DNA of 53,475 bases from Candidatus Fimimonas sp. (GCA_045644945.1 JAZRHU010000016.1:1-53475); one strand, 5' to 3'; counted from the stretch's first letter, positions 34,053-51,611 are shown. Program-made: numbers and translations. Notes: generated by a model from the letters alone, not told the origin.

Positions 34053-34565
34053 ATGGCACTTGTCAACATCGGACAATACCTATCAACCTTGGCCATCATT
34101 TGGGGCGGATTTTTGTTGCTAACTCGTATCAAACGAGCTTTTACAACAAGCAAAATTCCACACCTATCTTTTGTGCTGGGATTTTTAGCTAAGGTAGTCA
34201 AGCTGTTGGCAATTGTTAGCACGGTTACGATGTTGACATGTTTCCTCGATGTTAAGGATGTGTTGTCCACCATCCGCGAGTCCATCAGTGCCGAACTTGA
34301 GACGTTCCTTCGTGAGATCATCGACGTTCTGTTCAACACTCGTTCCTTCTTTACTGTGTTCCAAATTGTTGTAGATGGTGTGGTTGTAGTTTCCGCAACA
34401 TTCTGCAGTGTAGTGGTGTTCCTTGGCAACTTGGCTTACTTGTGTTTGGTTCTTATCAAGCGCGCAAGCCGTCCAACAAAACTTATTGCTGAGCAAGCAC
34501 ACTCAGTCCAAGCTTTTTCAACAAACGCATACAATTTCCAACGTAAATACTTCATTCGCGCATAG
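34053..34565 (+). CDS. Small membrane protein, 170 aa
   Basis: GGAG lies 7 nt upstream of the ATG. Three to four hydrophobic helices. It is preferred over the overlapping minus-strand ORF 33926-34429, whose composition is Thr/Asn/Arg-rich. Confidence 0.5.
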   Translation: MALVNIGQYLSTLAIIWGGFLLLTRIKRAFTTSKIPHLSFVLGFLAKVVKLLAIVSTVTMLTCFLDVKDVLSTIRESISAELETFLREIIDVLFNTRSFFTVFQIVVDGVVVVSATFCSVVVFLGNLAYLCLVLIKRASRPTKLIAEQAHSVQAFSTNAYNFQRKYFIRA

Positions 34566-34920
34566 AGCAAGAGGATTTTTTCCGCTTGTGGTCTTTTGGC
34601 GTACTTTTTGTACGTTCGTTTGATCACACATGCCAATACGTACGGAGTAGTGCACATATTTGTGTACTGTCCTCCCTATTGACATCAACGGCGGTCAAAA
34701 TCACTCTTTTTTTGTTGCGATTTGCACGTCCAACATTCGTATAGCAAATTTATAACTTAGTTATCCAGCTGTACTTGTTTGATTGCAAATTCGCACATGC
34801 GTGTATGAGGTATTTTTTTGTTACACATTTTGTCGAATTTTGGCACATTGCGTAACACCTCACAAGATTATCAAGGCAAATTGCCTGTTAATAAAAAAAC
34901 AAAACACAAGGAGAAAAGTT

Positions 34921-36084
34921 ATGATGACAAAAAAGACAATGACTATTTTGAGCGTATTCATGATAGTCGCACTCACAGCAGTCGGTTTTGCTGCATGGTT
35001 GATTGTTGGTACAATCGACGCTGAAACAACCGGCTCATTCGTTTCTAACGAACTCAAGGACAAGTACTTCAAGGTTGAAGTTGAGTTTGACACAACAGAC
35101 TCCAAAGAGAATGGTAAAATTGTATTCGGTAGACCAGCTACTGCTTACAATAATTCTTCCGATGCATGGTTGTCTTACTCCAACAAGGATGCAGTAGAAC
35201 ACCTTACTTCAAGAGCTACTGTAAAGTTCATCCCTGATGATGGCTTCCTTAAAAACGACACAAAGCCAGAAGAAAATCGTGACATGAAATACTACTTGGA
35301 AGAAGTAATCGAAAACGAAGATGCTACTTCCAGTACAGTGCAACACCGCACAGTTCGTGTAGTTATTGACATTCTTGATGTAATCGGCGAAGGTGCAACA
35401 CACAACTACAAGTGGTTTGACATGGCAGTTGAACTTGGTTACATCCAATACCCAACAGCATACGTTCTTGAAAGGGATGCAGGCGGCACAATTATAGCCG
35501 ACCAAACTTATGCAACAGCATCTCATCCACTTAAATGGTACACAAACGAATCTGCTACAGTTGCAGAAGAAGAATTGGTTACACTTGATGAAAGTGCGAA
35601 CGAATTCAAAAAATTCGAAAAAGGTGTTCTTGCTATTGACCTCGATGCAGATATGTTCTTTGTTAACTATGACGGAGATGGCAAAGCTAAAGAAGCTACA
35701 GTAGAAATTATGATCGATTTTGCTTGGGGCAAAATGATGAAGTTGATTGAAAGCGGAAAGGAAGTATTTGCTAACCCATACAAATACTTTAGCACAGTAA
35801 AACCCGAAGATGCTGTTGATGTTACTAAGTATCTCATTGAGTCAACAGGAATTCTTGGCGATACTAGACCATATCCACAAAAAGATGAAATTGCTGGCAT
35901 TGAAGGTGTTGAAAACGATGATGCAGCAACAATCCGTTACAAAGACCTTGCACAAAAAATGCTCGATTATCTTCGTGACTATTTGAATTATGTACCAGCT
36001 GACGCGGAAGCTGACCCAGTAGTACAAGAATCGGGTGTTAGATTCAGCATTATTTTGCTCGAAGGCAAACCTGATGTTGCATAA
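34921..36084 (+). CDS. Secreted acidic protein, 387 aa, with the VGFAAW N-terminal motif
   Basis: Start set at ATG 34921 (AAGGAGAA RBS). N-terminus MMTKKTMTILSVFMIVALTAVGFAAWLIVG. Confidence 0.8.
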   Translation: MMTKKTMTILSVFMIVALTAVGFAAWLIVGTIDAETTGSFVSNELKDKYFKVEVEFDTTDSKENGKIVFGRPATAYNNSSDAWLSYSNKDAVEHLTSRATVKFIPDDGFLKNDTKPEENRDMKYYLEEVIENEDATSSTVQHRTVRVVIDILDVIGEGATHNYKWFDMAVELGYIQYPTAYVLERDAGGTIIADQTYATASHPLKWYTNESATVAEEELVTLDESANEFKKFEKGVLAIDLDADMFFVNYDGDGKAKEATVEIMIDFAWGKMMKLIESGKEVFANPYKYFSTVKPEDAVDVTKYLIESTGILGDTRPYPQKDEIAGIEGVENDDAATIRYKDLAQKMLDYLRDYLNYVPADAEADPVVQESGVRFSIILLEGKPDVA

Positions 36085-36131
36085 TAACATCTTTAGCTAA
36101 CCCCCAAAAATCTCAAAAAGGAGAAAAAACT

Positions 36132-37328
36132 ATGAGATCTACAAGACGTGGATTTGGTCGCAGAGCTTTGTCCTTTGGTTTGGCAATTTTCTGCGCAATC
36201 ACACTTATGTCCGTCGGTTTCGCTGCATGGGTATTGTCCAACAATGCCAATCTCGAATCCGGTGGCGGAATCACAACTGAAACAATCACAGACAAATCCG
36301 TTAACATTGTTATCACCAATGCTGACAAAAACAAGGTGCTCTACGACTCCGTTGACGAAAATGGTGTAGGTACAGGTAAACAAAACCTTGTATTTGGTCA
36401 CTTGCCAGTAGATAACCCAGATGCTAACAAGGGCTTTATCCAAACTGACGGCGAAGATGGCAAGGCAGATAACGAAGACTTGCAATTTGTTGTTAAGGGT
36501 ACCGTTGATAACGTAGACAAAATCGGTCAATTGCACTTCCAAGTGCGCGTTCCCGATAGTCTTATTGCTGCAGCTGGTCTTAGCAAGGTTGCTGATACTT
36601 GGTCCTACGACCCTGCAAAGGCATTCATCAGATTGCCAAGCTTTGCAAGAGATAGCCAAGGTAACCAAATTCCTTACATCACAGGCACACTTACAGCTCC
36701 AGATGCTGACGGCAAAGTTAAGTACGAATTCCCAGCTAAAACAGACAACTGGACAGGACGAATGACAGAGGACGTTCTTTGGGAAGATCCATCTGCTTTG
36801 TTGACATCTGGTTCCGGTACTGCTGTTATCACAGACTTGGACGGCAATCAATACACAATCAAGTATGTTTCCGGCAGAACTGACAAGTTGGAATTCGAAT
36901 TGACAGTTAACTTCTACTGGGGTGCAAGATACCTTGGTATGAATCCTAACTACTTCTACGACGTAAACGAAAGAGTAAAGGGTACACACGACCAACTTAC
37001 AACTGATGTTCCAAACCCATACACCACAACCAACATGGATTTGGTTAACTACGACTTGTTGCTTGTTCAAGCCGTTATCAATGGCCTTAGCCTTGAAGAC
37101 TACTTGACAGCTAACAACGTTGATGCAACTGAAATCTACAAAGATACAGGTATCGAGTTGAATGGTGCAACTTTGGAAGACTACATCAAGTCTAATCCAG
37201 ATGGCATCAAGGCAAAACTTGGCATTTTGCAAGAAAACATTGCAACAGCAATTGCAAACTTGGGCAAGGACGACAACCACAAGAATGCTCCACTTTACGC
37301 ATTCTGGATTTACGCAGACGTAAAATAG
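36132..37328 (+). CDS. Secreted acidic protein, 398 aa, with the VGFAAW N-terminal motif
   Basis: AAGGAGAA RBS. N-terminus MRSTRRGFGRRALSFGLAIFCAITLMSVGFAAWVLSN. Confidence 0.85.
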   Translation: MRSTRRGFGRRALSFGLAIFCAITLMSVGFAAWVLSNNANLESGGGITTETITDKSVNIVITNADKNKVLYDSVDENGVGTGKQNLVFGHLPVDNPDANKGFIQTDGEDGKADNEDLQFVVKGTVDNVDKIGQLHFQVRVPDSLIAAAGLSKVADTWSYDPAKAFIRLPSFARDSQGNQIPYITGTLTAPDADGKVKYEFPAKTDNWTGRMTEDVLWEDPSALLTSGSGTAVITDLDGNQYTIKYVSGRTDKLEFELTVNFYWGARYLGMNPNYFYDVNERVKGTHDQLTTDVPNPYTTTNMDLVNYDLLLVQAVINGLSLEDYLTANNVDATEIYKDTGIELNGATLEDYIKSNPDGIKAKLGILQENIATAIANLGKDDNHKNAPLYAFWIYADVK

Positions 37329-37531: not shown

Positions 37532-37574
37532 TGTATAATGATAGTTCACCCAAGGCAATACGCGGCCTTGGGTG
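37532..37574 (+). promoter_or_regulatory. Extended -10 element (TGTATAAT) followed directly by a perfect 10-bp hairpin in the sipW-like leader
   Basis: TGTATAAT at 37532-37539. Hairpin CACCCAAGGC/GCCTTGGGTG at 37547-37574, followed by CTATGTGTTTT. Confidence 0.4.
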
Positions 37575-37657
37575 GCTATGTGTTTTAGAAAGTGTTTAAA
37601 TCGCGTATGTGCTAACATCTGTTAGCCCAAAAAATATCTAAAATCAAGGTTTTTAAC

Positions 37658-38722
37658 ATGTCTCAACAACAAATCATCGCATTGGTGGTCACAGCCATCG
37701 GTGTGGGAAGTTTCTTGGTGGTGTTTACCATTTTGTTTGCAAACTTCCGCAAGTTTTCCGTCAACGAAATCAAAAGTGGAAAACGCGACATCGAGCTGAT
37801 TCAGGACTACTTCCATAACAAAAATCCCAAAGTTATCGCGCGCAGAAAGGCAAACAAGGTCGTTCGCGACGTGTTATTTGTGCTGTTTTTGTTGCTTGTG
37901 TTGTTTAGCATTTCCTTTACTTTGGTATCGCGTTTTACCGACAAATTACCTATTGGAACAAAAACTTTGATGGTTGTCGCAACCGACTCGATGAGCGAGA
38001 AACATTCCGACAACGACTACCTACAAAACTACGACAATCAATTTCAACAATACAGTATCATCGTTTTGGAAAAGGTGGATCCAAACGATTTGGAAAAGTA
38101 CGATGTAATTGCTTACAAAACATCTACAGTAACACTAATTCACCGTATTGTTGGCATAGAAAAAACCACCACAAGCACACGCTATGTTACCTGTGGCGAC
38201 AAGTATTCTCACGAAACCAAAACCGACCCCTACAAACCTTCACAAAAGGACGTTATTGGTCGCTATACCGGTGTGGAAATACCCTTCTTTGGCTCAATTG
38301 TTTTGTTTTTGCAAGCCCCCGCAGGACTCATCACAATGTTAGCGCTACTTGTTTGTATGTTGATGTTCGACACCAACAGCGGACAAATCAGCAAGGAACA
38401 ACAAAAGCGCACCGATTTTCTTTTGACAATTCTCGATATCGACAACATGACGGACAAAACGAAACTAAGTGTCGATTTCGTTGAAAAAATATATCTCGAC
38501 AAAGTTGCTTACTCTTTTAGTAGCGAAGGACTTGTTAGCAAGGATGTTGCAACGGAAGTGCTAATTAGCCATCACCGCTTGCCTCCACAAGATGCCATCA
38601 CGCAAGTGGTGCAACCTGTCGAACCCTCAACGGACGTGACGGAAATTTCCTCCGACACTCCAGCCGATGTGCCAACAAACACATCGGTATCCCCAACCGA
38701 CACAGACGAAAGCAATAGCTAA
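37658..38722 (+). CDS. Signal peptidase I of the archaeal/ER (SipW, S26B) type with an extra N-terminal helix and a long C-terminal extension, 354 aa
   Basis: VVATDSMSE (Ser box), VTLIHRIVGI (His box rather than Lys) and CGDKYSHETKTD (GD box). There is a further TM helix and a ~110-aa Ser/Thr/Pro/Asp-rich tail. Confidence 0.75.
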   Translation: MSQQQIIALVVTAIGVGSFLVVFTILFANFRKFSVNEIKSGKRDIELIQDYFHNKNPKVIARRKANKVVRDVLFVLFLLLVLFSISFTLVSRFTDKLPIGTKTLMVVATDSMSEKHSDNDYLQNYDNQFQQYSIIVLEKVDPNDLEKYDVIAYKTSTVTLIHRIVGIEKTTTSTRYVTCGDKYSHETKTDPYKPSQKDVIGRYTGVEIPFFGSIVLFLQAPAGLITMLALLVCMLMFDTNSGQISKEQQKRTDFLLTILDIDNMTDKTKLSVDFVEKIYLDKVAYSFSSEGLVSKDVATEVLISHHRLPPQDAITQVVQPVEPSTDVTEISSDTPADVPTNTSVSPTDTDESNS

Positions 38723-38858
38723 ATTTGCGCTGTCCTTTGGGAGCAATATTTAATATGATATTTTTACAATCATATTGATATTGATTAACTATCTTATTGA
38801 TATATTAAAATATATATAATACAAAAGTAACAATTCTACTTAACATAGGAGAAACATC

Positions 38859-40640
38859 ATGTTAAAGGCAATTTATACTCGTAAAAACTACATCACAATC
38901 GCATTGGCTTGTATGTACTCATTTTTGATGGTTTTTGTTGGTCTTTGCTTGGACAATGGTTCCACAATGCTTAGCCCCAAGAACCCCATCAACATGTTGG
39001 GTGCAGCCATCGGTTTGCCCGCAGTAACACCAAACATCAATGGTATCATCACGCTGTTTTTGTGTGGCGTGTTCTTTGCAGTGTTTGTAGCCGCTGTTAT
39101 CTACCAACATCGCGTAGCAGTTGTGGCAGGCAGAAAACCATTCTCTTTCAAGATGGTGATGGCTTACATTCTTACTGCATTTGTGTGCTTGGCACTTTCC
39201 GTTGGTGTTGGTATTTTGATCCAAAGCCCAATCACAGCGGAAAATTTGAGCATTTTGCTTAGATACTTGTTCAACACAGTGGTGCTTTCCGCATTGATTT
39301 ACGCAGTTTTGTTTGTTGGTATTGGTTCTGTTGTGATGCTTGTTGTTAACTTTATTTTGATCGACAAGCCATTTAGAGGTACCGAACAAGATGAACCTGT
39401 CTTTGACGATGACGATATCCACGACGTTTCCGGCAGTTTTGACGTTGATGCAAACTCCAACACAACAGGTGCAGCAGGTGGCACAGGTGGTGCTGGTGGC
39501 GAAGGCGGCGGTGGCGGTGGTGGCCAAACAATGAATCTTGGCGACCGCGAAAAGGTATTCCCCGAGCTTTCAAGCATCGACAACAAGTACGATGGTTTTG
39601 ATGCTATCCCAGTAGATAGCGATCCAGTATCTTTGGAAGAACTTGCAACTGGATTTAGAAATTTCCTTGCAAAAAACCATCAATTGTACTTCGATATTGA
39701 TGTAATCCGCTTCTTTATCAGCGGTTTTGGCGCATCTCACTTCGAAATTTTGGAAGGTTTGTCTGGTACAGGTAAGTCCTCCTTGCCAAGATACTTTGCA
39801 AAGTATGTTAACGGTAACGTTTTGTTCATGCCAGTACAAGCAACATGGCGTGACAAGACAAGTATTTTGGGCTTTTTCAACGAATTCTCTCAAACCTATT
39901 CCGAAACAGAGTTTTTGACAAAGTTGTACGAATCTGCTTACAACACAGACGAAGTAAACATCTACGTTTTGGACGAAATGAACATCAGCCGTGTAGAATA
40001 CTACTTTGCTGACCTTCTTTCCGTACTTGAGTACCCAGTTGAAGATTGGAAGCTTAAGATTATGAACGTTCCTCACACATTTGTTCCACCAATCAAGTTG
40101 GAAGATGGTTACGTTCGCATCCCAGAAAACAGCTACTTTGTTGGTACAGCCAACCGAGACGACAGTACATTTACCATCACAGACAAGGTTTACGACCGTG
40201 CCATCACTTTGGACTTCGAAGCGCGCAACACACCATTCAAAGTTGACCACGAAGTTTCCTCCATTCGTCTTTCTGGCTCCTATTTCCGTCAATTGTTCAA
40301 TGATGCAATGGCAAACGGAACACACCTTACAGAGGAAGACAAGGCCAAGTTGGACAAGGTTATCAACTTTGTATTCGACAAGTTTGACCTTACAATCGGT
40401 AACCGTATCATGAACCAAATCTACAACATCGTTCCTGTGTTTGTAGCTTGTGGCGGTACAAAGGAAGATGCACTTGACTTTATGCTTTGCAAAAAGTTGT
40501 TTGCCAAGTTGGAAGGCCGTTTCGAAGAATACGTAAAAGTAGCTCTTAGTGAAACATTGAGCTTGATTCGCAATGTCTACGGCAAAGGCGTGCTCAAGCG
40601 TTGCGAAAGAGTTTTGGAAAAGATCGAAAGATCCTTGTAA
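38859..40640 (+). CDS. Polytopic membrane domain plus Gly-rich linker plus McrB-type (COG1401-like) AAA+ NTPase, 593 aa
   Basis: 4-5 hydrophobic helices in aa 1-170. Linker GAAGGTGGAGGEGGGGGGGQ. Walker A GLSGTGKS. IYVLDEMNISRVEYYFADLLSVLE and FVGTANRDDSTF resemble the McrB-family signature. Confidence 0.7.
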   Translation: MLKAIYTRKNYITIALACMYSFLMVFVGLCLDNGSTMLSPKNPINMLGAAIGLPAVTPNINGIITLFLCGVFFAVFVAAVIYQHRVAVVAGRKPFSFKMVMAYILTAFVCLALSVGVGILIQSPITAENLSILLRYLFNTVVLSALIYAVLFVGIGSVVMLVVNFILIDKPFRGTEQDEPVFDDDDIHDVSGSFDVDANSNTTGAAGGTGGAGGEGGGGGGGQTMNLGDREKVFPELSSIDNKYDGFDAIPVDSDPVSLEELATGFRNFLAKNHQLYFDIDVIRFFISGFGASHFEILEGLSGTGKSSLPRYFAKYVNGNVLFMPVQATWRDKTSILGFFNEFSQTYSETEFLTKLYESAYNTDEVNIYVLDEMNISRVEYYFADLLSVLEYPVEDWKLKIMNVPHTFVPPIKLEDGYVRIPENSYFVGTANRDDSTFTITDKVYDRAITLDFEARNTPFKVDHEVSSIRLSGSYFRQLFNDAMANGTHLTEEDKAKLDKVINFVFDKFDLTIGNRIMNQIYNIVPVFVACGGTKEDALDFMLCKKLFAKLEGRFEEYVKVALSETLSLIRNVYGKGVLKRCERVLEKIERSL

Positions 40641-40800
40641 TTTGGTGTATTTTTGTACATCCATCAACATTGTTTCTTACTACACATCAGCACTTGTGCA
40701 ACACAAAAATGACCTTGTTGCACAGTGTTGAAATAGTGGTGCAAAATATCAAAAACACACCACGTATAGCCAAAAAATTGAAAGTAACCGGAGTCTTTTT

Positions 40801-42087
40801 ATGAGAAGTGTCGAAAAAGTTTCATTACAGGAATTTGTTTCCGATATGAAAGATTACTGCGTGAGTTATCCAACTGGTCTGGATTTTTATTCCAATCTGG
40901 ACAAGTTGCCAATGAACTCATTGCAGTCCTTGTCATGCGAAAAAGACCGCGACTATCTCAAGCAAGTGGACCGCATTTTGCGCATTGTTATGTCCATCAT
41001 TTCCCATCCACACATTTCCAACAAGCGCGAGGAAATTGTAACTCGTATCGAGCAAGCAAAACAACTTTCCGAAGAAGAGTTTAGACGTGTTTTGCAAAGT
41101 GGTAACATGTGGAAACGTCACGATGCCAAGATGGTGCCAGAAGACGTCTACTACTACCAACACGTAGACGAACTTGCCATCTACGAAAACCAATTTATTT
41201 GTTTGCTGATTGATTTGTTAGACAAAGACTTGGCAATGTATGGCGAGTTTTACATCGCTTTGTTGCCTAGCTATACCGAAGACCATCCCGAAATGATTTC
41301 CGGCGAGGAGTCGCAACTGGTTTTGCGTCAAATCGACAGATTGCGCAAACGCATCAGCTTCATCAAGAACACCCATTTCTACAAGGAAGTTAGCAAAGTT
41401 AAACGAATTTCTCGCAACATCCAACGTACAAACATTTTGCTCAAAGATAACTTGTACAAGCAAACTTTCCGTTTTTACAGACAGTTTATCAGCTACGAAA
41501 ACGAAGGCGTAGTGTACGAGGACTTGCAAAACTTCTACTTTGTTTTGATTCTCAAGGATTTGTTCAAACGCGGATTTAAGTTTGATGGTTCTGCAACTGT
41601 TTTTGGCAAACCCGTTTGGAACTTTGTTGGCGAGCAGTTCAAGATCAAGTTAACATTTGACAAAAACAAATTCGGCTTCGACTTTGTAATTGCCGACCAA
41701 TACAGCAACAGATTGGCTCGTCACTTGTTGCTTTTGTCACCAACAATCAGTTTTTCCGAGGTTCGTGATCCCGAAATCGACGTTTGGGATACTGTCGATG
41801 CACTTTCTTTGTGGAACTGTGTCGATATGGAAGATAATATCAAACGACCCATCGAAAAGCCTTTGAGCGAGGCGCAATTGGTAGCAAACTGGTTGGATAA
41901 CAAACTTGCACACACCATTGCAAACGAGGATGTGTACAGCCATTACTGCCCCGTATGCAAAAACAAAAATATCGATATCAAGGATGGTTTGCATATCTGC
42001 ATGAAGTGCAAATCTCACTACGTATTTACTCGCAATAAAAATAGCAACACAGTTTTGTGGTTTACAAAACTTCGGAGAGCAAAATGA
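40801..42087 (+). CDS. McrC/DUF2357-like partner protein with a C-terminal zinc ribbon, 428 aa (tentative assignment)
   Basis: It sits directly after the McrB-like gene. AIYENQFICLLIDLL resembles the N-terminal McrC/DUF2357 region. C-terminal CPVCKNK...CMKCKSHY. I could not see a clear PD-(D/E)xK motif. Confidence 0.45.
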   Translation: MRSVEKVSLQEFVSDMKDYCVSYPTGLDFYSNLDKLPMNSLQSLSCEKDRDYLKQVDRILRIVMSIISHPHISNKREEIVTRIEQAKQLSEEEFRRVLQSGNMWKRHDAKMVPEDVYYYQHVDELAIYENQFICLLIDLLDKDLAMYGEFYIALLPSYTEDHPEMISGEESQLVLRQIDRLRKRISFIKNTHFYKEVSKVKRISRNIQRTNILLKDNLYKQTFRFYRQFISYENEGVVYEDLQNFYFVLILKDLFKRGFKFDGSATVFGKPVWNFVGEQFKIKLTFDKNKFGFDFVIADQYSNRLARHLLLLSPTISFSEVRDPEIDVWDTVDALSLWNCVDMEDNIKRPIEKPLSEAQLVANWLDNKLAHTIANEDVYSHYCPVCKNKNIDIKDGLHICMKCKSHYVFTRNKNSNTVLWFTKLRRAK

Positions 42088-42842
42088 GCGTAAACGAAAA
42101 CAACAATCAAACAAAAACGCCCTCTATTGTCATAACGGAACTGCACAAGTCCTATGGCAAAAAGCAGGTGCTAAAAGGCCTCAACTTGGAAGTGTTCCCT
42201 GGCGAGTTGTTTGGCTTTATCGGTAAGAACGGTATTGGTAAATCTACCACAATCGACTGTGTTATTGGTAGCAAAAAGTTCAATTCCGGTACCATCTTGC
42301 TAAATGGTTACGACATCAAAAATGAGCCATTGCTTGCAAAATCGCAATTTGGCTACGTTGCAAGTGAGCCATCCTGCTACGACGTTATGACCGGCTACGA
42401 GTACTTGGAGTTTATTGCCAGCATCTACAACGTTTCCGAAGGTGATTTTGTCCGCAACATGCGTTACCTTTGCAATCGTTTGAAGCTAGACCAAAAGGAA
42501 CTTGGCAACCGCATTGCTAACTACTCCCACGGTATGAAACAAAAACTTTGTTTGGTGGGTAGCTTGTTGTACAATCCATCCATTTGGATTTTGGACGAAC
42601 CAACTGTTGGTTTGGATATCATGGCGGTGGAAGAACTAAAACGAATGATGCGCGAATATGCAAATCATGGCAAAACAGTTTTTGTAACATCACACAACAT
42701 CGACTTGGTAAGCCGACTTTGCGACCGAGTTGCAATCATAAACGAAGGTCAAGTAGCGGTGCTATACGACCTCAACAAAGAACCAAACCGTCGCTTGCAC
42801 CTATCTCGTGCATTTATGAAAATTTACGGAGAAGAAGAGTAA
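42084..42842 (+). CDS. ABC transporter ATP-binding protein
   Basis: Walker A GKNGIGKST, signature YSHGMKQKL, Walker B ILDEP. Start at ATG 42084, overlapping the upstream stop (ATGA). Confidence 0.9.
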   Translation: MSVNENNNQTKTPSIVITELHKSYGKKQVLKGLNLEVFPGELFGFIGKNGIGKSTTIDCVIGSKKFNSGTILLNGYDIKNEPLLAKSQFGYVASEPSCYDVMTGYEYLEFIASIYNVSEGDFVRNMRYLCNRLKLDQKELGNRIANYSHGMKQKLCLVGSLLYNPSIWILDEPTVGLDIMAVEELKRMMREYANHGKTVFVTSHNIDLVSRLCDRVAIINEGQVAVLYDLNKEPNRRLHLSRAFMKIYGEEE

Positions 42843-42846
42843 CTCA

Positions 42847-44439
42847 ATGATCAATCTACTGATAAAAGACTTTAGACTTATGTTCGGAAACAAACAGAGT
42901 GCGTCACAACGTATTATCTCTGGTGTTTTTTCCGTACTGTTTTTCGTGGCTTTTATCGTGATTGAAGTGTTTTTGTTCCGTACAATCCTAAAAACTATCA
43001 AAGACATCAAACATGCATCTACTGCATTTTTGACAGTATTTTTACTTATCACAACGATATTTATCACAATTGGTAACCTTTTCCAAGCAAAAAGATTATT
43101 TTTCGACGCAAAGGATATAGAGCAACTTTCCAATCGCCCCGTATCCAATACTCAAATCATTTTGTCTAAACTTTTGTACTTGTTTTTGATCCACTACGCA
43201 ACAAGCTTGATGTTTGAGTATCCACTTTTTGTGGCGTATGGTCTATTGGCTAACAAAATGCCAATGTTCTACTACTTGTGTTTGTTCTACCCAGTTGCAA
43301 CATTTTTCTTCTCGATGGGTGTTGCGTTGCTTCTTGTTTACCCACTTTGGTTGTTTACAAAGTTTATCAAACGCCATTTTTGGTTGGAAATGAGTGTTTC
43401 GTTGGTACTTATTTGTGGTCTTACCATTGCATACTCCTATGTCTTGGATATTTTCATCAAATTGGTTGCCAATAACGACCTTCTTTCCTTGTTCTCGCAA
43501 GAGTCCATCAATAGCTTTATCAAATTCCAAAACTATGCCTTCCCTGTAAACTTTTTGGTAGATATTTTCTTCAATAAGCATGCAACGGCATTGTTCCCAT
43601 ATCTTTGTATATCCATTGGCGTGTTCGGATTGGGACTTTCGGTGGCAATTTTTGCATTTGGTGATGTTCGTAACATTTCTTCGAACACAACAGTCAACCA
43701 AAAGGAACGCCCCTACAAGTCCACATCCGTAACTACTGCGCTAATCAAAAAGGAGTTTAGCTTGATCGGCAAAAACTCCGACTATATATTCAGCTACACA
43801 GGACTATTAATTGCTCAGCCACTTTTGTTGTACTTTGTTACAAAGTCCATGAACACAGTGCTTGGCAGTGGCACAATCCAATACTTTGCAAAGCTTGTTC
43901 CTGGTCTAATTGACTATGTTGATATTTTGCTGATGATGCTATTTACCGTTATCATCAACCAAGGTGCAAACAGTTACATCACCATGGAAGAGCGCACAAT
44001 CAAAAACATGAAGACAATTCCTGTGCCATTTGGCAAGCAATTGTTCATCAAGGTAGCAATTCCATTTGGACTTTCCACAATTTCGCTGATTGTCAGTTGT
44101 TTGGTTTTGTGGTTGACAAAAACAGTAACATTGCAACTTGCATTGTTTGCATTGCTAATTTCGGTAGTGCTTTTGTTTGTATTCCAAATCATCTCCCTTT
44201 GGGAGGAGTTGTCCATTCGTCACGGCAAACCCAGGACATCGTCTATGTCCACATTGTTTGCATACCTTTTGCCCATTGTATATGCGGTTACCGCTATCAT
44301 TTTGTCATACACAGGCCTTCCAACAGCAGTCACAATTTTGGGTGGTCTTGGTGTTATTGCAGTTATTGGTGCCATTCCCGTTATCATCGTATTTACGCGC
44401 GCCAATGATATGTTCTTAAGTTTGGAGGCAATCAACTAA
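42847..44439 (+). CDS. ABC exporter permease-like polytopic membrane protein, 530 aa
   Basis: About 10-12 hydrophobic helices. It starts 4 nt after the ATPase gene. Confidence 0.7.
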   Translation: MINLLIKDFRLMFGNKQSASQRIISGVFSVLFFVAFIVIEVFLFRTILKTIKDIKHASTAFLTVFLLITTIFITIGNLFQAKRLFFDAKDIEQLSNRPVSNTQIILSKLLYLFLIHYATSLMFEYPLFVAYGLLANKMPMFYYLCLFYPVATFFFSMGVALLLVYPLWLFTKFIKRHFWLEMSVSLVLICGLTIAYSYVLDIFIKLVANNDLLSLFSQESINSFIKFQNYAFPVNFLVDIFFNKHATALFPYLCISIGVFGLGLSVAIFAFGDVRNISSNTTVNQKERPYKSTSVTTALIKKEFSLIGKNSDYIFSYTGLLIAQPLLLYFVTKSMNTVLGSGTIQYFAKLVPGLIDYVDILLMMLFTVIINQGANSYITMEERTIKNMKTIPVPFGKQLFIKVAIPFGLSTISLIVSCLVLWLTKTVTLQLALFALLISVVLLFVFQIISLWEELSIRHGKPRTSSMSTLFAYLLPIVYAVTAIILSYTGLPTAVTILGGLGVIAVIGAIPVIIVFTRANDMFLSLEAIN

Positions 44440-47057
44440 TGAAAAAGAAAAATTTATTGGTTCTTTTGATGATTCCATTCTTAATTTCCACCCTTACCAT
44501 TGTTTCCGTTAACATGACGTACGACTTGGTAGACGTGGATATCTCCTATATCGAGTGGGAATACGAAGATATTGTTGCCTACCAAATAACAAACGAGCTT
44601 ATTCCACTAAATGCAAAGGGCGTAAACCAACGTCATAACGAAGTAAGTTCCGGCAACAACCTTATTTGGACTGTTACCAATCAAGATGGAAGCCCCGACC
44701 CCTATGCAACAATCGTCAAGCAAGGGGATAGCTACTTCCTAAAAACATTGCTCGAAGGTGACGTAATAGTTACCTGTTCCAATCAAAAGGGCAATGTATC
44801 ACGTAGCTTTAGCTGTATCGTATTCAAGGATGGCTACATCTCCATTCGTCCAGCAATTGCAAACAGTCGTGTAGGCAAGGTGGACGATACCATCTACTTT
44901 GGCGAGTACGACTTTACCCCAAGTGGCGAAAGAGGCAGTGCTTCCTTCGATATCGTGGTGGAGTGTCGTCCAGCAAGCGTAATTTCCAGTTTGTCTCAAG
45001 AGTCCATCACACTTTCTGATACGCTCACATTGGATATTGATTTTGCCGATGCAACGGAGTCTCAAGGCGCAGTTCGCGTGATGGGTACTGTAAATGTGGA
45101 CGTTACCAACTGGAATCAACAAAATTCCCAAGCAAACATAACAGTTACATCATCCATTGATAGCTACAAACCAGGTATTTTCGATTTCCAAATTGTTCGA
45201 GATGGCTACAATGTTTACAACTATCAACAATTGTTGGACTGCACAAATCGTTCTGTCGAAGGCAAAATCGCCGTTTTGCAAGTATCTTTCGATAGCGAGC
45301 ATAACTATGCCGACTACCTTGCTACAACAAGTCATCAAGTCAAGTATCACAATGTCAAGTGTATGGGCGACCTAGATGGTAATGGCAAAGCAGATTTTGC
45401 ACTAGATAACGGCACAGTAGTGCCCATCAGAACAAAGTACAATCACTTGTACCTTGACCAATGGAACAAAACCAACCCCGACTCCAAAATTAGTTTGGAT
45501 GTTTTAACGGGTTTGTACGTTCAAAAAGATTTCTACGGAAATGGCCACTCTATCAACTTCCACGATTTGACATACCCATCTAGAGGCGGTACCATTGTTG
45601 ATGGCAATGTAACACCTCCCGAACTTGCTGATGAAGACTTGTTTAGAGGCCCTAAATCCTTCTACACAGTAGGCACACCAAGTGGCGAAGGTATCAACCT
45701 CATCACAATCTACGGCCAAGATAACTCCGGCATGTATGCGCGAGGTAACCTTGTTATCAACGATGTTTCCTTGCAAAACTGCGATAACGATGGTAAACCA
45801 CTTAGCTTTTTGGATACTGTCGGCACAGTTTTGGATGTAGATACCGACTTGGATAACAACTTGGAGCCAGACAGAGACGTAAAAGTTATTGTACAAAACT
45901 GCCGACTTTCCAATGGCAAAAACATTGTACGTAGTTTTAGTAGCAATTTGCTTTTAGATAACTGCATGCTATCCAACGCTCACAACTTCCTGTTCTTTAC
46001 AGGTTCCAACAAGTTTGTTCAAGCTGATGGCAACAAAACTCACTCATTTGTTTCCAAAGAGGGAAATGTTTCCTCAACGTTGTACGATTTCTTGAGCAAA
46101 AATGGCCCAGCAAATGCAATTTTGGACGACTATCTTGCTGCAAAGTACGGCGAAGGTCATGTATTCAAGGACTCCGTTCAAATGCAAAACTGCCTGTATG
46201 GTACAGGTGGCAAAATGAATCCTAACTCCATTCAAGCTGCACTTACAACCAACTTGGCAGGTCAATTCAAGGGCGAAGCAGAAATCAAGGATTGCATAAT
46301 GAACACATCTGGCATTGCAGCAATTGCAATGGAAAGTTTGTTCAATGGCCCATACCTGTTCAATAACAGTATCCCTAACACAATTTCCGGCTTGTTCGAG
46401 TTTGCCGATAGCCTTGGCTTGTCTGCGTTCAATTGCTCTAACATTTCCGGCACATCCTACCCTGTAAAAGTAACGCTTAGTGGTTCCACCAAGTTCTACG
46501 ACTACAAGGAGCTGGACAAAATTGACCTAAGCGGTTTGGTTCACGAGGATATTTCCGACTTCCTAAGTATGTTTGGAAGTTTGACGGGTAACAACAACTA
46601 CAACGTCACAATTGACGAAATCTTCCCCATCAAGAACCTGCTAAACAGATACGCTACCCAAAATGGTTACAACGGCGAAAACAGCCAATACAAGGGCAAA
46701 GTGAATATTCCTGTTGTATTCTATGGGGGTGGCGCAAACTACTCCGAGTTGACAATTGACGAAGGTGCCGATTTGTTCAACGACAGTTACATTGGTCTGC
46801 GCGAAGGCACCGTGCAATCTGCACAAGTAAACCTTTTGGATAGATACATGTATCTGCCAAAGGTTTCCCCAATCGGTTTGGTACAACAATATGCCAAAAT
46901 TGATTTGGACAAAAACACACTTATCAAAACAGTAACAATTGTTACCGGTTACGAGCCATTTGAGTTTGTGTTTGTAAAAGGCACAAGCTACTACGATAAC
47001 TACCTGTCCAAGCAACCAACCAACTTGCTTGAACAACTCAAGAACAACGCAAAGTAG
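44439..47057 (+). CDS. Membrane-anchored extracellular protein with a parallel beta-helix-like region, 872 aa
   Basis: N-terminal anchor KKKNLLVLLMIPFLISTLTIVSV. Repeated N-x-hydrophobic rungs (NCRLSNGKNIVRSFSSNLLLDNCMLSNAHNFLFF). 1-nt overlap with the permease stop. Confidence 0.7.
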   Translation: MKKKNLLVLLMIPFLISTLTIVSVNMTYDLVDVDISYIEWEYEDIVAYQITNELIPLNAKGVNQRHNEVSSGNNLIWTVTNQDGSPDPYATIVKQGDSYFLKTLLEGDVIVTCSNQKGNVSRSFSCIVFKDGYISIRPAIANSRVGKVDDTIYFGEYDFTPSGERGSASFDIVVECRPASVISSLSQESITLSDTLTLDIDFADATESQGAVRVMGTVNVDVTNWNQQNSQANITVTSSIDSYKPGIFDFQIVRDGYNVYNYQQLLDCTNRSVEGKIAVLQVSFDSEHNYADYLATTSHQVKYHNVKCMGDLDGNGKADFALDNGTVVPIRTKYNHLYLDQWNKTNPDSKISLDVLTGLYVQKDFYGNGHSINFHDLTYPSRGGTIVDGNVTPPELADEDLFRGPKSFYTVGTPSGEGINLITIYGQDNSGMYARGNLVINDVSLQNCDNDGKPLSFLDTVGTVLDVDTDLDNNLEPDRDVKVIVQNCRLSNGKNIVRSFSSNLLLDNCMLSNAHNFLFFTGSNKFVQADGNKTHSFVSKEGNVSSTLYDFLSKNGPANAILDDYLAAKYGEGHVFKDSVQMQNCLYGTGGKMNPNSIQAALTTNLAGQFKGEAEIKDCIMNTSGIAAIAMESLFNGPYLFNNSIPNTISGLFEFADSLGLSAFNCSNISGTSYPVKVTLSGSTKFYDYKELDKIDLSGLVHEDISDFLSMFGSLTGNNNYNVTIDEIFPIKNLLNRYATQNGYNGENSQYKGKVNIPVVFYGGGANYSELTIDEGADLFNDSYIGLREGTVQSAQVNLLDRYMYLPKVSPIGLVQQYAKIDLDKNTLIKTVTIVTGYEPFEFVFVKGTSYYDNYLSKQPTNLLEQLKNNAK

Positions 47058-47064
47058 GAGGACT

Positions 47065-48318
47065 ATGTTTATGCGTAAGACAATTCCACTAATAGCATTG
47101 CTAATTGCAATGTGCTTTATATTGACTGCCTGTGGATCCTTTATGGAATGGGGCAACGAGGAAGTAAAGCAAATTGAAAAGATTGACAAACACACCGATG
47201 CAAATGGTGTGGTTTACATGGATATCTATTTTGTTGGCGAGGATAATCCTCAAAGTATCCCATTGCCAAGCGGTGCCGATGGTACAAGTATCAGCTTTGA
47301 TGCCAAGTACAATCAAGACGAACGCAAAACAGTTGTAACTGTGTCCTTTAGCGATGGTTCCCCAAACAAGGTGTTTGATATCAAAGACGGTCAATCCATC
47401 ACAAGTGTGGTTATTTCCGAAGGGGAAATTGGTATTGGCGACGTTTTGTGTTTCTACTGCGGTAACGATTTGGTTGGCGAAATCCCAATGTCTCAAATCA
47501 GAGGTAAGGATGGTGCAACTTGGTTAACAGGTACATCCGCTCCAGATGATGCAGTAGGCAAGGATGGCGACTTCTATCTCAACACAGCAAAATTTGATGT
47601 GTACATCAAAAAGGGCGAAACTTGGACAACTGTTGGCAATCTTACTGGTGCAGGTATCGACAAGATTGAAACCTACGAGTCTGCAGATGGCAGTGGTATC
47701 AAAATTACCTACAACGAACAAAGTGGCTGGGAGCCAACAATCGTTCTTTGCCCAGGTATCACAGATATTAACCTCAAACTTTCCGATGACAAAAAGGAAT
47801 TTGTTTTCGAAGTTGTTTTGAGTAACGGCATTGTAGACGAAAATGGCGTTACACAAACTTTCAGCAAGGAGTTTGCTATTGCTCGTTTCCCACAATGGGA
47901 GTCTGGCACAAACTTCCCCGGCGAAGATGATGGTATCGTTGGCGACTTCTACTTCTACGAACCAACCCAAACAATCTTGCACAAAAAGTCCACTGGTTGG
48001 GTAACAATCATCAGCTTTAACGAACTTTTGAACCAAGGCAACGACAAAGTTAATGTTACTTTTGATGCTCTTGGTGGCCAAATGACAATCACAGGTTACA
48101 CTAATCCTACCGAAAAGTACGAAATGTCCGTAACAAAGGGAGCATTTGTTCATTGTGACCTCATTCCAATTCCAACAAAGGACGGCTTTACATTTGGTGG
48201 TTGGTACACAGTACCTAATCCAAACCCACTTGTAAATGGCAGATTTACCGACATGGTTCCAGTATCTCAAAACATCACATTGTACGCTTACTGGATTCCC
48301 AATGGCTCTTCCAATTAG
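47065..48318 (+). CDS. Lipoprotein with a C-terminal Listeria-Bacteroides (Flg_new) repeat
   Basis: Lipobox ILTAC|GS after MFMRKTIPLIALLIAMCF. C-terminal GFTFGGWYTV...ITLYAYW. AGGAGG RBS. Confidence 0.8.
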   Translation: MFMRKTIPLIALLIAMCFILTACGSFMEWGNEEVKQIEKIDKHTDANGVVYMDIYFVGEDNPQSIPLPSGADGTSISFDAKYNQDERKTVVTVSFSDGSPNKVFDIKDGQSITSVVISEGEIGIGDVLCFYCGNDLVGEIPMSQIRGKDGATWLTGTSAPDDAVGKDGDFYLNTAKFDVYIKKGETWTTVGNLTGAGIDKIETYESADGSGIKITYNEQSGWEPTIVLCPGITDINLKLSDDKKEFVFEVVLSNGIVDENGVTQTFSKEFAIARFPQWESGTNFPGEDDGIVGDFYFYEPTQTILHKKSTGWVTIISFNELLNQGNDKVNVTFDALGGQMTITGYTNPTEKYEMSVTKGAFVHCDLIPIPTKDGFTFGGWYTVPNPNPLVNGRFTDMVPVSQNITLYAYWIPNGSSN

Positions 48319-48321
48319 TAA

Positions 48322-48352
48322 AAAAACCTCGTTCAACAGAACGAGGTTTTTG
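48322..48352 (+). terminator. Intrinsic terminator ending the surface operon
   Basis: AAACCTCGT/ACGAGGTTT stem followed by TTTT. Confidence 0.8.
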
Positions 48353-48353
48353 C

Positions 48354-48382
48354 TTGACAAACATAGTAAACGTTGTTATGAT
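48354..48382 (+). promoter_or_regulatory. Promoter upstream of the riboswitch
   Basis: TTGACA (48354-48359), 17-nt spacer, then TATGAT (48377-48382). Confidence 0.6.
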
Positions 48383-48384: not shown

Positions 48385-48520
48385 TTTTACCATAAAGAGT
48401 GCGTGAGGGACAGCCCCACAGACCGCACAGCAACCTACTAGATTGGCAAGGTGCTAAAGGCTGAACGATGGGTAAAATTGTAGTCGTGCGAACCCATCGT
48501 CATCGATGGGTTTTTCTTTT
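48385..48520 (+). promoter_or_regulatory. SAM-I clan (S-box-like) riboswitch with terminator expression platform
   Basis: The P1 stem pairs TTTTACCAT with ATGG(G)TAAAA. Conserved elements are AGAG, GAGGGA, GCAACC and AAGGTGCTAA, and the P2 stem pairs GTGCG with CGCAC. P4 is short or absent. The terminator AACCCATCG/CGATGGGTT plus a T-run (48491-48520) can alternatively pair with the P1 3' strand. Confidence 0.65.
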
Positions 48521-48867: not shown

Positions 48868-50283
48868 ATGAGTGTTAAACATCAACAAGTCTTTGGCATC
48901 ACACCAGAAGTAGCCAAGCAAATTTTGGACGTTGCTCTTTCCACAGGTGGACAATTTGCCGAAGTATTTATGGAAAACGCTACAAGCGAAGTGCTTCGTA
49001 TGCGTCAAGGCAAGCTTGAAAGCACAAACATCTCCAGTACAAAGGGTGCAGCAGTACGTGTAATCAAAGATGGCACCGAAGTTAGCGCATCTGTTACTCT
49101 TGCCACAGTAGAAAAACTTTTGGAAACTGCCAAAACTTTGGCGGATAGTTTTGTTGGCGAACAAACAACACAAGTTGCTCCATTTGCCGAAAAGGTTGTG
49201 GATATTGTTGTAAATCCACTTCAGGTTCGTGGCGAAGATAACTCCAAGGAACTTCAACTTTTGTCCGACTCTACACGTGGTGCAAAGGAATACAGTCAAG
49301 AAATTATTCAAGTAATTGCTCTTTTGACTAAAAACGAACGCAATGTTTTTGTGTTTGCTAGTGACGGAACATGGCAAACTGACCGCCGTTGCAACACACG
49401 TCTTATTTGCCAAGCAATTGCATCCGATGGCAAAGATATGCAAAATGGCTCAAACTCTTTCGGCCGTAACCAAGGTATGGAAATGTTCGAGGGCTTTGAT
49501 GCGGTAGAGTTTGGTAAAGAAGCAGCATTCAATGCTGTGGAAATGCTTCACGCGGAAGAAATGACCGGTGGCGAAATGCCCGTTGTTATTCACAATGGCT
49601 TTGGTGGTGTAATTTTGCACGAAGCTTGCGTTCACGGCCTCGAAGCCACATCAGTTGCAAAGGGTATGAGTGTATTTTGTGGCAAAATCGGCCAAAAGGT
49701 TGCAAGCGACATTGTAAATGCAGTTGACGATGGTACACAACCTGACCTTTGGGGTTCCATCAACGTGGATGATGAAGGTACACCCTCTAAGCGCAATTTG
49801 CTTATCGAAAATGGCATTTTGAAATCCTACTTGGTAGACAAGCGCAACAGCTTCAAGATGAACCATCCAATCACAGGCTCTTCTCGTCGTGAGTCCTACA
49901 AGTACCAAACAACATCTCGTATGACAAACACCTACTTCTTGCCTGGCGAATCCACTTTTGAAGAAATCATTGCTAACACAAAGTTTGGTTTGTTTGCCAA
50001 GGAAATGGGTGGTGGCTCCGTTAACCCTGCAACAGGCGAATTCAACTTTGCAGTTAACGTTGCCTATATGATTGAAGATGGCAAAATCACCCGTCCAGTA
50101 AAGGGCGCAACACTTGTTGGCTCTGGTAAGGATGTTCTTTTGCGTATTGATATGATTGGCAACAACTTGGACTACGGCTATGGTATGTGCGGATCTCAAT
50201 CTGGTTCCATTCCTACAATCGTAGGCCAACCCACAATCAGAGTTTCCCACATGACAGTTGGTGGCAAAGGAGGTAACAAGTAA
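48868..50283 (+). CDS. tldD: TldD family metalloprotease
   Basis: The HEACVHGLE (HExxxH) motif, a length of 471 aa, and pairing with a PmbA-like gene. Confidence 0.85.
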   Translation: MSVKHQQVFGITPEVAKQILDVALSTGGQFAEVFMENATSEVLRMRQGKLESTNISSTKGAAVRVIKDGTEVSASVTLATVEKLLETAKTLADSFVGEQTTQVAPFAEKVVDIVVNPLQVRGEDNSKELQLLSDSTRGAKEYSQEIIQVIALLTKNERNVFVFASDGTWQTDRRCNTRLICQAIASDGKDMQNGSNSFGRNQGMEMFEGFDAVEFGKEAAFNAVEMLHAEEMTGGEMPVVIHNGFGGVILHEACVHGLEATSVAKGMSVFCGKIGQKVASDIVNAVDDGTQPDLWGSINVDDEGTPSKRNLLIENGILKSYLVDKRNSFKMNHPITGSSRRESYKYQTTSRMTNTYFLPGESTFEEIIANTKFGLFAKEMGGGSVNPATGEFNFAVNVAYMIEDGKITRPVKGATLVGSGKDVLLRIDMIGNNLDYGYGMCGSQSGSIPTIVGQPTIRVSHMTVGGKGGNK

Positions 50284-51611
50284 TGACATTGGATCAAATC
50301 ATCAAACGTGGCCTCGAACTTGGCCTCGAAGCGGTGGAAGTGTATGCATCCACTACCGAAAGCAACGCATTGAAATTGGACGAAGGAAAGCTTGAGTCTT
50401 ACTCTATGAAAGAACTTTTCAATGTTTCTATTCGCGGTCTCAAAAATGGCAAAATGGCAAGTGTTACTACCGAATCTCTCGATGACGAAGTGGTAGAAAC
50501 CCTTTTGCAATCACTTGTTCGCAATGTAAACGCTTTGGACGCACTTGAACCAGAGTTTATGTTCGAAGGTGGTAGCACCTACCAACCAGTTGAAGAACTA
50601 AAAGCTAACTACAAAGATTTTACTGTTGCGCAAAAGGTAGAACTACTCAAAACTTTGGAACGTCGTTGCCTTGCTACAAGTGACAAAATCAAAAAGGTTG
50701 GCTACTGCCAATACAGCGAAACTGCACGCAAAGTTCAACTCAAAAACTCCAAGGGACTCGACCTTGCTCAATCCTACTCCTATATTTCCACATTTGTTGG
50801 GCCATTAGCTGCTGAAGCGGATCAAACTGCAGTTGGTTGGAGTAGCGATATCACAACTGACTTTTCCGCTATCGAAGTGGACCGCATGGTGGACGAAGCT
50901 ACCAAGTCTGCACTTGATCAACTTGGCGCAGGTAGCATCCAAACTGGCAAATACCCAGTTGTATTCAAACGCGATGTTGCTAGCGAAATTTTGTCAGCAT
51001 TTTCTTCCGTATTCCTTGGCGACTCTGCATTGCGCCGTATGACAATTTTGACGGACAAAGTTGGTCAAAAGGTATTTGGCGAAAATATCACAATTTGTGA
51101 CGATCCATTCTGCCCAATGGCGCTTGTAAAGAACTCATTCGACGACGAAGGTGTTCCATGCGTTACTAAAAACGTGGTAGAAAATGGTGTTTTCAAAGGC
51201 TTTATGCACACCTTGAAGAGCGCCAATGCGCTTGGTGCAAAGCCAACTGGTAACGGATTTAAAGCGGGTGGTGGTGCAATTAGCTCTCAACCAACTAACT
51301 TGTACCTTCAAGCAGGCGAACTTACAAAGGACGAAATCATTGCAACTGTGGAAGATGGTATCTACCTTACAGAGGTTGGTGGCTTGCATGCAGGTTTGAA
51401 CCCAATTTCTGGCGACTTTAACGTTCAAGGTACAGGTTTTGTTATCAAAAATGGCAAAATTGACCGTCCAATCACATTGTTTGTAGTTTCCGGCAACTTC
51501 TACGAAATGATGAACAATGTAGAGCTTATCGGTAACGATATCGAAAAACGCTTTGTTGGCGTTGCTTGCCCAACTTTGAAGATCAAATCCTTGGCAATTT
51601 CCGGTAAATAA
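50283..51611 (+). CDS. pmbA: PmbA/TldE family protein
   Basis: 442-aa paralog of TldD without HExxxH. C-terminal GDFNVQGTGFVIKNGKI motif. 1-nt overlap with the tldD stop. Confidence 0.85.
   Translation: MTLDQIIKRGLELGLEAVEVYASTTESNALKLDEGKLESYSMKELFNVSIRGLKNGKMASVTTESLDDEVVETLLQSLVRNVNALDALEPEFMFEGGSTYQPVEELKANYKDFTVAQKVELLKTLERRCLATSDKIKKVGYCQYSETARKVQLKNSKGLDLAQSYSYISTFVGPLAAEADQTAVGWSSDITTDFSAIEVDRMVDEATKSALDQLGAGSIQTGKYPVVFKRDVASEILSAFSSVFLGDSALRRMTILTDKVGQKVFGENITICDDPFCPMALVKNSFDDEGVPCVTKNVVENGVFKGFMHTLKSANALGAKPTGNGFKAGGGAISSQPTNLYLQAGELTKDEIIATVEDGIYLTEVGGLHAGLNPISGDFNVQGTGFVIKNGKIDRPITLFVVSGNFYEMMNNVELIGNDIEKRFVGVACPTLKIKSLAISGK

Follow-up and report, generated by a model that had tools for sequence, protein, structure and literature searches.

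A stretch of 53,475 nucleotides (nt) from Candidatus Fimimonas sp. (GCA_045644945.1 JAZRHU010000016.1:1-53475), referred to here as the window, carries at positions 37658-48318 seven consecutive genes for a SipW-type signal peptidase, a McrB-like GTPase and its McrC-like partner, the ATPase and permease of an ABC transporter, an 872-amino-acid (aa) bitopic membrane protein and a lipoprotein. On the basis of sequence comparison we propose, with a probability of about 0.6, that this block is a conserved operon that, together with nearby secreted proteins sharing a GFAAW-type signal, would form an envelope machine of monoderm gut Clostridia and not a DNA restriction system. The best-supported role of such a machine would be the processing, export and/or anchoring of the GFAAW-signal proteins and of a giant adhesin with Flg_new repeats. 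The composition and order of the block are conserved, its GTPase, ATPase and peptidase motifs are intact, its McrC-like protein has no nuclease motif and its GTPase is anchored in the membrane. McrBC is the standard textbook example of a modification-dependent restriction enzyme; in this block, strong selection has preserved its GTPase/activator core while both DNA-handling parts have been lost, and the core is tied to a peptidase, an ABC transporter and surface proteins. The seven genes, with their transmembrane (TM) helices and the quality of their AlphaFold2 (AF2) models where relevant, are the following.

37658-38722 (+): SipW/archaeal-type signal peptidase I, 354 aa, 3 TM by hydropathy (TIGR02228, 5.7e-15, above cut-off)
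38859-40640 (+): McrB-like AAA+ GTPase, 593 aa; 4 TM (about residues 12-168), an acidic/Gly-rich linker and the GTPase domain
40801-42087 (+): McrC-like protein, 428 aa; DUF2357 helical domain, poorly conserved beta-rich domain and zinc ribbon
42084-42842 (+): ABC transporter ATPase, 252 aa (ABC_tran PF00005, 2.5e-23)
42847-44439 (+): 12-TM permease, 530 aa, by hydropathy; two 6-TM halves, each opening with a KDF/KKEF motif
44439-47057 (+): 872-aa bitopic membrane protein (AF2 pLDDT 82, pTM 0.83; alignment A2)
47065-48318 (+): lipoprotein, 417 aa; lipobox LTAC and C-terminal Flg_new repeat (6.5e-9)

Conservation and layout of the block

We compared 63 independent loci, metagenomic or genomic, whose McrC-like gene is orthologous to that of the window (26 clusters at 95% nucleotide identity), and counted each neighbour only at loci long enough to show it; before this selection by orthology, the loci surveyed included 79 from a metagenome scan with the family alignment. 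Downstream of the McrC-like gene, and always in this sequence, the ABC ATPase was present at 49/49 loci, the permease at 45/45, the 872-aa protein at 38/38 and the Flg_new lipoprotein at 36/36, and these counts span 13-19 sequence clusters at the same identity. The McrB-like gene was present at 54/55 loci and an adjacent SipW-like peptidase at 52/53, the one miss being in both cases a locus (L065) with an 85-residue McrC-like fragment. Conversely, 6/6 loci reached through homologues of the 872-aa protein hold the whole block, including the McrB-like/McrC-like pair. In the common order, at least two small proteins precede the peptidase (about 320-355 aa), the McrB-like protein (about 600 aa) and the McrC-like protein (about 411-453 aa), which are followed by the ABC ATPase, the permease (500-531 aa, mostly 530), a protein of about 800-870 aa and the Flg_new lipoprotein; at one locus (L001) the order differs for one gene, a solute-binding-protein gene being inserted and the McrB-like gene moved upstream of the peptidase. 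As the genes on either side vary from one locus to the next (capsule genes, rplU/rpmA/spoIIA, amylase or sugar metabolism), the block is kept as a unit. The initial annotation of the window, made from this sequence alone, had suggested a genome comparison of the block, which turns out to be conserved as a unit and to be longer than was supposed, beginning at 37658. Independent occurrence of the McrBC-like pair and the ABC block was not seen at any of the loci counted in either direction, and for this reason the interpretation first put forward, a composite envelope machine, stands.

Clostridia of the human gut, rumen and goat colon carry the family in abundance, and its proteins are entirely unannotated. 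A contig scan with one window protein returned one locus, in the metagenome-assembled genome (MAG) Clostridia bacterium RGIG2098 (goat colon), at 96% identity; the GTPase and its relatives with an NxD-type signature (see below) amount to thousands of clusters. At L065, where a 3-kb contig with phage-like genes ends, a GIY-YIG-like open reading frame (ORF; 1877-3034) continues in frame into the 85-residue McrC-like piece (YENIFIV... region); this locus is explained either by a chimeric assembly or by the insertion of a homing endonuclease.

Direct re-reading of the window found the four gene junctions exactly where they had first been placed: the McrC-like stop and the ABC ATPase start overlap in ATGA (42084-42087), the ATPase TAA (42840-42842) is followed after 4 nt by the permease ATG (42847), the permease and the 872-aa gene meet in TAATG (44437-44441), and the TAG of the 872-aa gene (47055-47057) lies 7 nt before the lipoprotein ATG (47065). 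Each of these starts is preceded by a GGAG-type Shine-Dalgarno sequence located within the preceding gene. In most relatives, the genes from peptidase to lipoprotein overlap or are 0-5 nt apart, and the ATGA overlap or gaps of 1-5 nt recur at the McrC-like/ABC junction. Three RNA structures accompany the block.

48317-48354 (+): intrinsic terminator closing the block; -18.3 kcal/mol, z = -5.4, 0/200 shuffles as good, then a U run
about 40686-40731 (+): hairpin in the McrB-like/McrC-like spacer; stable fold without a U tract
37546-37575 (+): hairpin between a gene for a 398-aa subunit-like GFAAW-signal protein and the machinery genes; -24.9 kcal/mol, z = -3.8, weak U tract

The first of these is the strong terminator that had been read at 48322-48352. 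The unit ends at 48354, because a promoter-like site (TTGACA-17-TATGAT with TG, 48354-48382, +) and a SAM (S-adenosylmethionine) riboswitch (RF00162, 51.3 bits, 48387-48474, +) come directly after it; the riboswitch has its own terminator hairpin (48490-48513) and lies upstream of a small ORF and of a TldD/PmbA pair (48868-51611), which is not a usual S-box regulon. The McrB-like/McrC-like spacer measures 160 nt in the window versus 1-5 nt in most relatives (gene calls), and its hairpin is specific to the window's lineage; as this hairpin lacks a U tract, the earlier statement that no terminator separates the two genes holds. The peptidase/McrB-like spacer is 136 nt long, and the hairpin at 37546-37575 may be an attenuator or a partial terminator. 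Although the tight packing of the five genes first grouped as one unit (McrC-like to lipoprotein) is confirmed, the extent given to that unit was too small: its start lies one to two genes further upstream, and it reaches to the SipW-type peptidase (37658-38722) and the GFAAW-signal proteins at 32000-37328.

Proteins of the block and their candidate substrates

The McrB-like protein carries the GTPase motifs GLSGTGKS, VLDEMN and GTANRDDSTF, and across the family GLSGTGKS, VLDE[ML]N and GTAN[RK]DDST are invariant in 121/121 homologous sequences; the gene is therefore under selection and not decaying. A library-wide search returned 7648 GTPase relatives, 670 of them below 1e-30, and the closest 150 representatives (50% identity) share the signature GTAN-x-D-[DE]-STF (for example, NQDE, NRDE and NHDE) with a conserved D at +2, so that the N-R-D-D of the window is of the NxD type. 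The match to AAA_5 is weak (E = 0.0025, under the Pfam cut-off), and phmmer against E. coli McrB (6HZ4) gives a weak alignment from Walker B to the signature (E = 0.045). Hydropathy and domain search of residues 1-170 found no DNA-binding N-terminal domain of the McrB kind and four TM helices instead, and the distance from the end of TM4 (168) to the conserved GTPase region (about 230) is too short for a coiled coil. Other N-terminal architectures occur among the GTPase relatives besides 4 TM, namely 1-2 TM, long N termini without TM (one with coiled-coil-type matches) and 10-12 TM; the last are predicted for NxD-type GTPases of about 900-930 aa (P0484, P0495, P0497, P0498, P0501, P0502 and P0504).

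The McrC-like protein matches DUF2357 (PF09823; E = 4.6e-8, 33 bits versus a cut-off of 23.3), which is also the precomputed family of many of its homologues (full-length, 30-95% identical, unnamed proteins of Clostridia MAGs). In an alignment of 37 sequences (A1) the DUF2357 half is strongly conserved. In the C-terminal half of the same alignment the only invariant residues are those of the zinc ribbon (C383, P384, C386 and C400), with H308, E357, Y379, C403 and W420 nearly invariant; the protein ends in this CPxC zinc ribbon (CPVC...CMKC). No conserved D...(D/E)xK is present in that half and no nuclease family was matched. The longest helices of the AF2 model (pLDDT 83) have about 28 residues. 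As a Foldseek search of this model against the PDB found nothing below E = 0.4, McrC included, the McrC assignment rests on the Pfam profile and on the pairing with the GTPase. Profile searches of alignments A1, A2, A3 and A5 against PDB sequences returned nothing but zinc-ribbon or Ig-like noise.

In the peptidase, the catalytic boxes S111-M112, H162-R163, G180-D181 and D190 are invariant in 10 aligned sequences, which include the sister systems described below. With the Ser-His-Asp boxes kept in 10/10 sequences, the enzyme is predicted from sequence to be catalytically active, in contrast to the streptococcal SipA-type pilus chaperones. The window-family peptidase has in addition an N-terminal TM helix, the cytoplasmic loop GKRDIELI and, also on the cytoplasmic side, a C-terminal tail that is conserved.

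The ABC ATPase has a complete motif set (GKNGIGKST, YSHGMKQ, ILDEP and TSH) and is 68-81% identical between loci; in NCBIfam it is similar to generic DrrA/GldA/lantibiotic-protection exporters, GldA being among its best matches (7.4e-43, far below that model's cut-off). Whereas the ATPase of the exporter first annotated here is clear, the permease matches ABC2_membrane_4 only weakly (E = 0.0069, 16.8 bits, cut-off 27), and one of its homologues has a weak 12TM_1 match.

The 872-aa protein, for which no family match was found and which has homologues in at least 527 clusters at 90% identity, has a highly conserved TM helix at its N terminus, followed by two Ig/BIG2-like domains (about residues 35-260) and then by a large C-terminal domain. 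Foldseek searches of the full-length model against PDB and BFVD place all top-ranked matches on the two Ig/BIG2-like domains, which resemble S-layer and Ig tandems (E about 3e-6). The beta-helix (pectate-lyase) fold that had been ascribed to this protein could not be confirmed, as no such match appeared in Pfam (E up to 10), in the PDB profile search or in the PDB/BFVD Foldseek search of the full-length model. The Flg_new repeat that the lipoprotein had been said to share with the neighbouring giant adhesin is present in both by Pfam (five copies in the adhesin).

Upstream of the peptidase lie four candidate substrates.

23648-31963 (-): giant surface protein, 2771 aa; signal ending VGLSTW, five Flg_new repeats, a YDG domain and a weak C-terminal Hint match
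32000-32836 (-): secreted protein, 278 aa, with GFASW-type signal, from the signal motif scan
34921-36084 (+): secreted protein, about 387 aa, with GFAAW-type signal; mechanical ORF from TTG 34783, likely start MMTKK
36132-37328 (+): GFAAW-signal protein, 398 aa (tblastn; alignment A3)

The 398-aa protein is the orthologue of the gene directly upstream of the peptidase in all related loci, and its family (A3) has invariant G29, F30, A32 and W33 and a WG..NP motif. A common signal end, V/T-G-F/L-A/S-A/S/T-W, joins the three smaller proteins and the 2771-aa adhesin. The motif (that is, a basic stretch, a hydrophobic stretch and [ST][VT]GF[AS][AS]W) occurs in 2-5 proteins per locus and was present at 42/44 loci of at least 15 kb, the two misses being YAW variants outside the strict pattern; within the window, proteins with this motif occur beside the cassette only. 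The 278-, 387- and 398-aa proteins have no Pfam or NCBIfam match, TasA-type models included. Adhesin-like proteins of at least 1600 aa with the same signal and Flg_new adjoin the cassette at three further loci (L002, L007 and L008).

The weak Hint match of the adhesin covers residues 2485-2634, starting CLAAGTLITMADGS, with about 130 residues beyond it, and another neighbour gene with a Hint match occurs at L007; such a module could mediate autoproteolytic release or attachment of the C-terminal piece. Between the divergent GFASW (-) and GFAAW (+) genes lie about 2 kb (32837-34920; G+C about 0.37-0.38) in which the only ORFs are two mutually overlapping ones without family match and in which strong promoter-like sites point in both directions (32948-32920, -; 33929-33957, +). 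This segment is probably a long regulatory region.

Sister loci, proposed mechanism and rival explanations

At 23 distant loci (L066-L087) the McrC-like proteins are 21-27% and the McrB-like GTPases 36-42% identical to the window family, and the ABC, permease, 872-aa and lipoprotein genes are all absent. In representative loci, the McrB-like protein has about 507 aa with one TM helix followed by a heptad-like stretch, the McrC-like protein has a long K/E-rich, coiled-coil tail, the peptidase is SipW-type (TIGR02228, 8.4e-14) and 3-4 proteins carry a signal ending in TFAW[FY]T, which resembles the TasA/camelysin signal (GGTFAYFSD). An hhalign comparison of window-type (A3) and sister-type (A5) subunits aligned the signal end alone (E = 0.19). 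Membrane EAL/GGDEF genes stand directly after the peptidase in sister loci (L071 12043-13629, L084 12031-13617 and L085 12013-13596) and near one ABC-type cassette (L088 15983-18201), and these neighbours, which relate to c-di-GMP (cyclic di-GMP), hint at biofilm-type regulation.

Judged by sequence, the sister loci fit the description of CoCoPALM, of all described systems the nearest to that of the window, to which Bell et al. 2024 (PMC11090510) devote one paragraph: a GTPase fused to an FtsB-like TM and a coiled coil, proteins of the signal-peptidase family, and coiled coils on both McrB and McrC. According to the same work, the CoCoNuT/CoCoPALM branch is defined by a GTPase signature reduced to NxD, in most cases with D or E after it; its authors also link, independently, such McrBC relatives to signal peptidases and pilus assembly (PMC11090510). 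Its supplementary files contain no text on CoCoPALM, and in the literature we found neither a follow-up publication nor any mention of the ABC-linked form. The window system is a distinct ABC-linked, 4-TM, coiled-coil-free variant of the CoCoPALM kind, and, provided that the role proposed below is right, CoCoPALM, so far only a name, would gain from it a concrete, testable gene set.

The reading of the block as an envelope machine rather than a restriction system, which agrees with the initial annotation, draws on co-occurrence, on four TM helices in place of a DNA reader, on the lack of a nuclease motif and on the attachment of a predicted-active peptidase and signal-motif proteins. What we infer for this machine, from its substrates and cleavage site to the work of its two NTPases and the contacts between its parts, can be envisioned as follows. 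The GFAAW-signal proteins and the giant Flg_new adhesin would leave through Sec and remain held by their signal peptides, whereupon the SipW-type peptidase, on the outer face, may cut at the conserved GF(A/S)|(A/S)W and uncover a conserved hydrophobic N-terminus, perhaps for polymerization or attachment as in SipW/TasA-type fibres. On the cytoplasmic face, a membrane-anchored McrB-like hexamer, activated by the McrC-like protein, could act as a GTP-driven switch or motor, possibly working through the lineage-specific cytoplasmic loop and tail of the peptidase. The ABC transporter, the 872-aa protein (via its conserved TM helix) and the lipoprotein would make up an ATP-driven extracytoplasmic part that uses mechanotransmission or export to move the products through the wall or to anchor them. 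If this role is true, the system would be an example of an AAA+ GTPase ring re-used at the membrane and would reveal the route by which giant Flg_new adhesins, as well as small fibre-like proteins, are made in gut Firmicutes that have been little studied. A more specific version, which we advance tentatively as a possibility, is an undescribed envelope secretion/assembly apparatus in which a ring of McrB-type GTPase subunits, each with four TM helices, would have a nuclease-less McrC as its plug, would serve SipW-processed fibres and giant adhesins as their motor or gate, and would be mechanically coupled to the ABC transporter and its extracytoplasmic partners; a domesticated restriction enzyme would then have given rise to a new kind of protein export/assembly system.

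Several points weigh against the operon and envelope-machine reading. The 136- and 160-nt spacers are long, the second holding a hairpin, and more than one transcript is possible. The McrC-like model has no PDB neighbour, and the McrB-like domain matches a PADLOC phage-defence candidate (PDC-M26A). Between the two sister systems, the substrate families have no detectable homology apart from the signal, and neither TasA nor any solved structure is detectably similar to the putative substrates (Pfam, NCBIfam and the PDB profile search of A3). The GFAAW signal is matched by no NCBIfam model of any kind, in a scan that may not have scored the signal-peptide model TIGR04088.

Of the rival explanations, the one that survives best has two modules under one promoter: a CoCoPALM-like core would make fibres, and the ABC transporter, 872-aa protein and lipoprotein would do a separate job (wall polymer, lipid or peptide export) without touching the GTPase module. 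Sister systems that do without the ABC, 872-aa and lipoprotein genes are consistent with this, as is the similarity of the ATPase to generic exporters of the DrrA/GldA/lantibiotic-protection type. We nevertheless consider it unlikely: co-occurrence is perfect across lineages as distant as 31-45% McrC-like identity, the McrC/ABC junction is an ATGA overlap or a gap of 1-5 nt in relatives too, and the additions to the peptidase (extra TM and tail) and to the McrB-like protein (4 TM) appear solely together with the ABC block.

We think it quite improbable that the block serves at the membrane in anti-phage defence or conflict, with the NxD McrBC module sensing invading nucleic acid there, or acting on it, and the ABC transporter and surface proteins working as effector or exclusion device. 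Such a role would account for the match of the GTPase domain to PDC-M26A (2.3e-30) and sit well with the remainder of the NxD clade, which consists of predicted defence systems (CoCoNuTs), and the McrC-like zinc ribbon could bind nucleic acid. Against this stand the lack of a nuclease motif and of any other nuclease in the block, a McrB-like protein without a nucleic-acid reader domain, the strict linkage to a signal peptidase and secreted proteins, and flanks made of housekeeping genes and not of defence islands; in PADLOC, the GTPase domain is the sole defence-candidate match, the other six proteins giving generic ABC/AAA similarity at most. Fortuitous adjacency of a degenerate McrBC cassette and an unrelated ABC operon in this genome only, for which the long spacers (136 and 160 nt) flanking the McrB-like gene and nothing else speak, is refuted by the co-occurrence counts over orthologous loci in both directions (49/49 and 6/6) and is at odds with NTPase motifs invariant in 121 homologues, which leaves it with hardly any probability.

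Elsewhere in the window, the genes around the block are of the usual chromosomal kind and include those for acyl-CoA ligases, FakA, an MFS transporter and TldD/PmbA. The first 58 nt of the window (1-58) are the 3' end of a 16S rRNA gene, and two tRNA genes (-; 22617-22702 and 23139-23221) are just downstream of the adhesin gene. A 505-aa protein (1116-2633, -) that matches the DUF4379 zinc finger and, weakly, the restriction-endonuclease-like families DUF2726 and MTES_1575 is unrelated to the cassette.

Comparison with known systems

ABC transporters that work with extracytoplasmic partners include MacB, LolCDE, the FtsEX-type mechanotransmission systems and GldAFG. As in these systems, the window block encodes its ABC ATPase and permease along with an extracytoplasmic partner that is bitopic or lipid-anchored, but its permease is 12-TM and ABC-2-like rather than FtsX/MacB-like, and membership in these groups is not claimed.

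SipW-dependent fibre operons, such as tapA-sipW-tasA of B. subtilis and sipW-bsaA-bsaB-bsaC of C. perfringens (PMC11580942), resemble the block in having a dedicated ER/archaeal-type peptidase beside paralogous secreted proteins with a special signal end, and it is on their surface fibre/matrix role that we have modelled the function proposed for the block. They differ in lacking a McrBC-like GTPase pair and an ABC transporter, and the secreted proteins of the window have no detectable TasA/camelysin similarity.

With canonical McrBC (E. coli McrB/McrC; PDB 6HZ4 and 6UT6) the window pair shares an AAA+ GTPase with Walker A, Walker B and N-x(-x)-D signature, a DUF2357 partner and the adjacency of the two genes. 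Yet the window McrB-like protein has TM helices in place of the DNA-binding N-terminal domain, its partner has no PD-(D/E)xK motif, the signature is NxD[DE], and what is there a two-gene cassette is here always embedded in a seven-gene block. CoCoNuT systems (CnuB/CnuC) belong to the same NxD GTPase clade, and type II CnuC, with DUF2357, an inactivated nuclease fold and CPxC zinc-binding motifs (PMC11090510), resembles the window McrC-like protein in layout; the window system, in contrast, is without long coiled coils, HEPN or other nuclease, is membrane-anchored and lies in an envelope gene context.

CoCoPALM shares with the window system a membrane-anchored NxD-type McrB-like GTPase, a DUF2357 McrC-like partner without nuclease, an obligatory SipW/archaeal-type peptidase and several adjacent secreted proteins with an ...AW-type signal end. 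Whereas CoCoPALM has one FtsB-like TM with a coiled coil on the GTPase and a coiled coil on McrC, the window proteins have 4 TM with a Gly-rich linker and a CPxC zinc ribbon without a coiled-coil tail, and the window peptidase has an extra TM and a cytoplasmic tail. The ABC ATPase, the 12-TM permease, the Ig-domain protein of ~800 aa and the Flg_new lipoprotein, none of which occurs in the sister loci, are constant in the window family.

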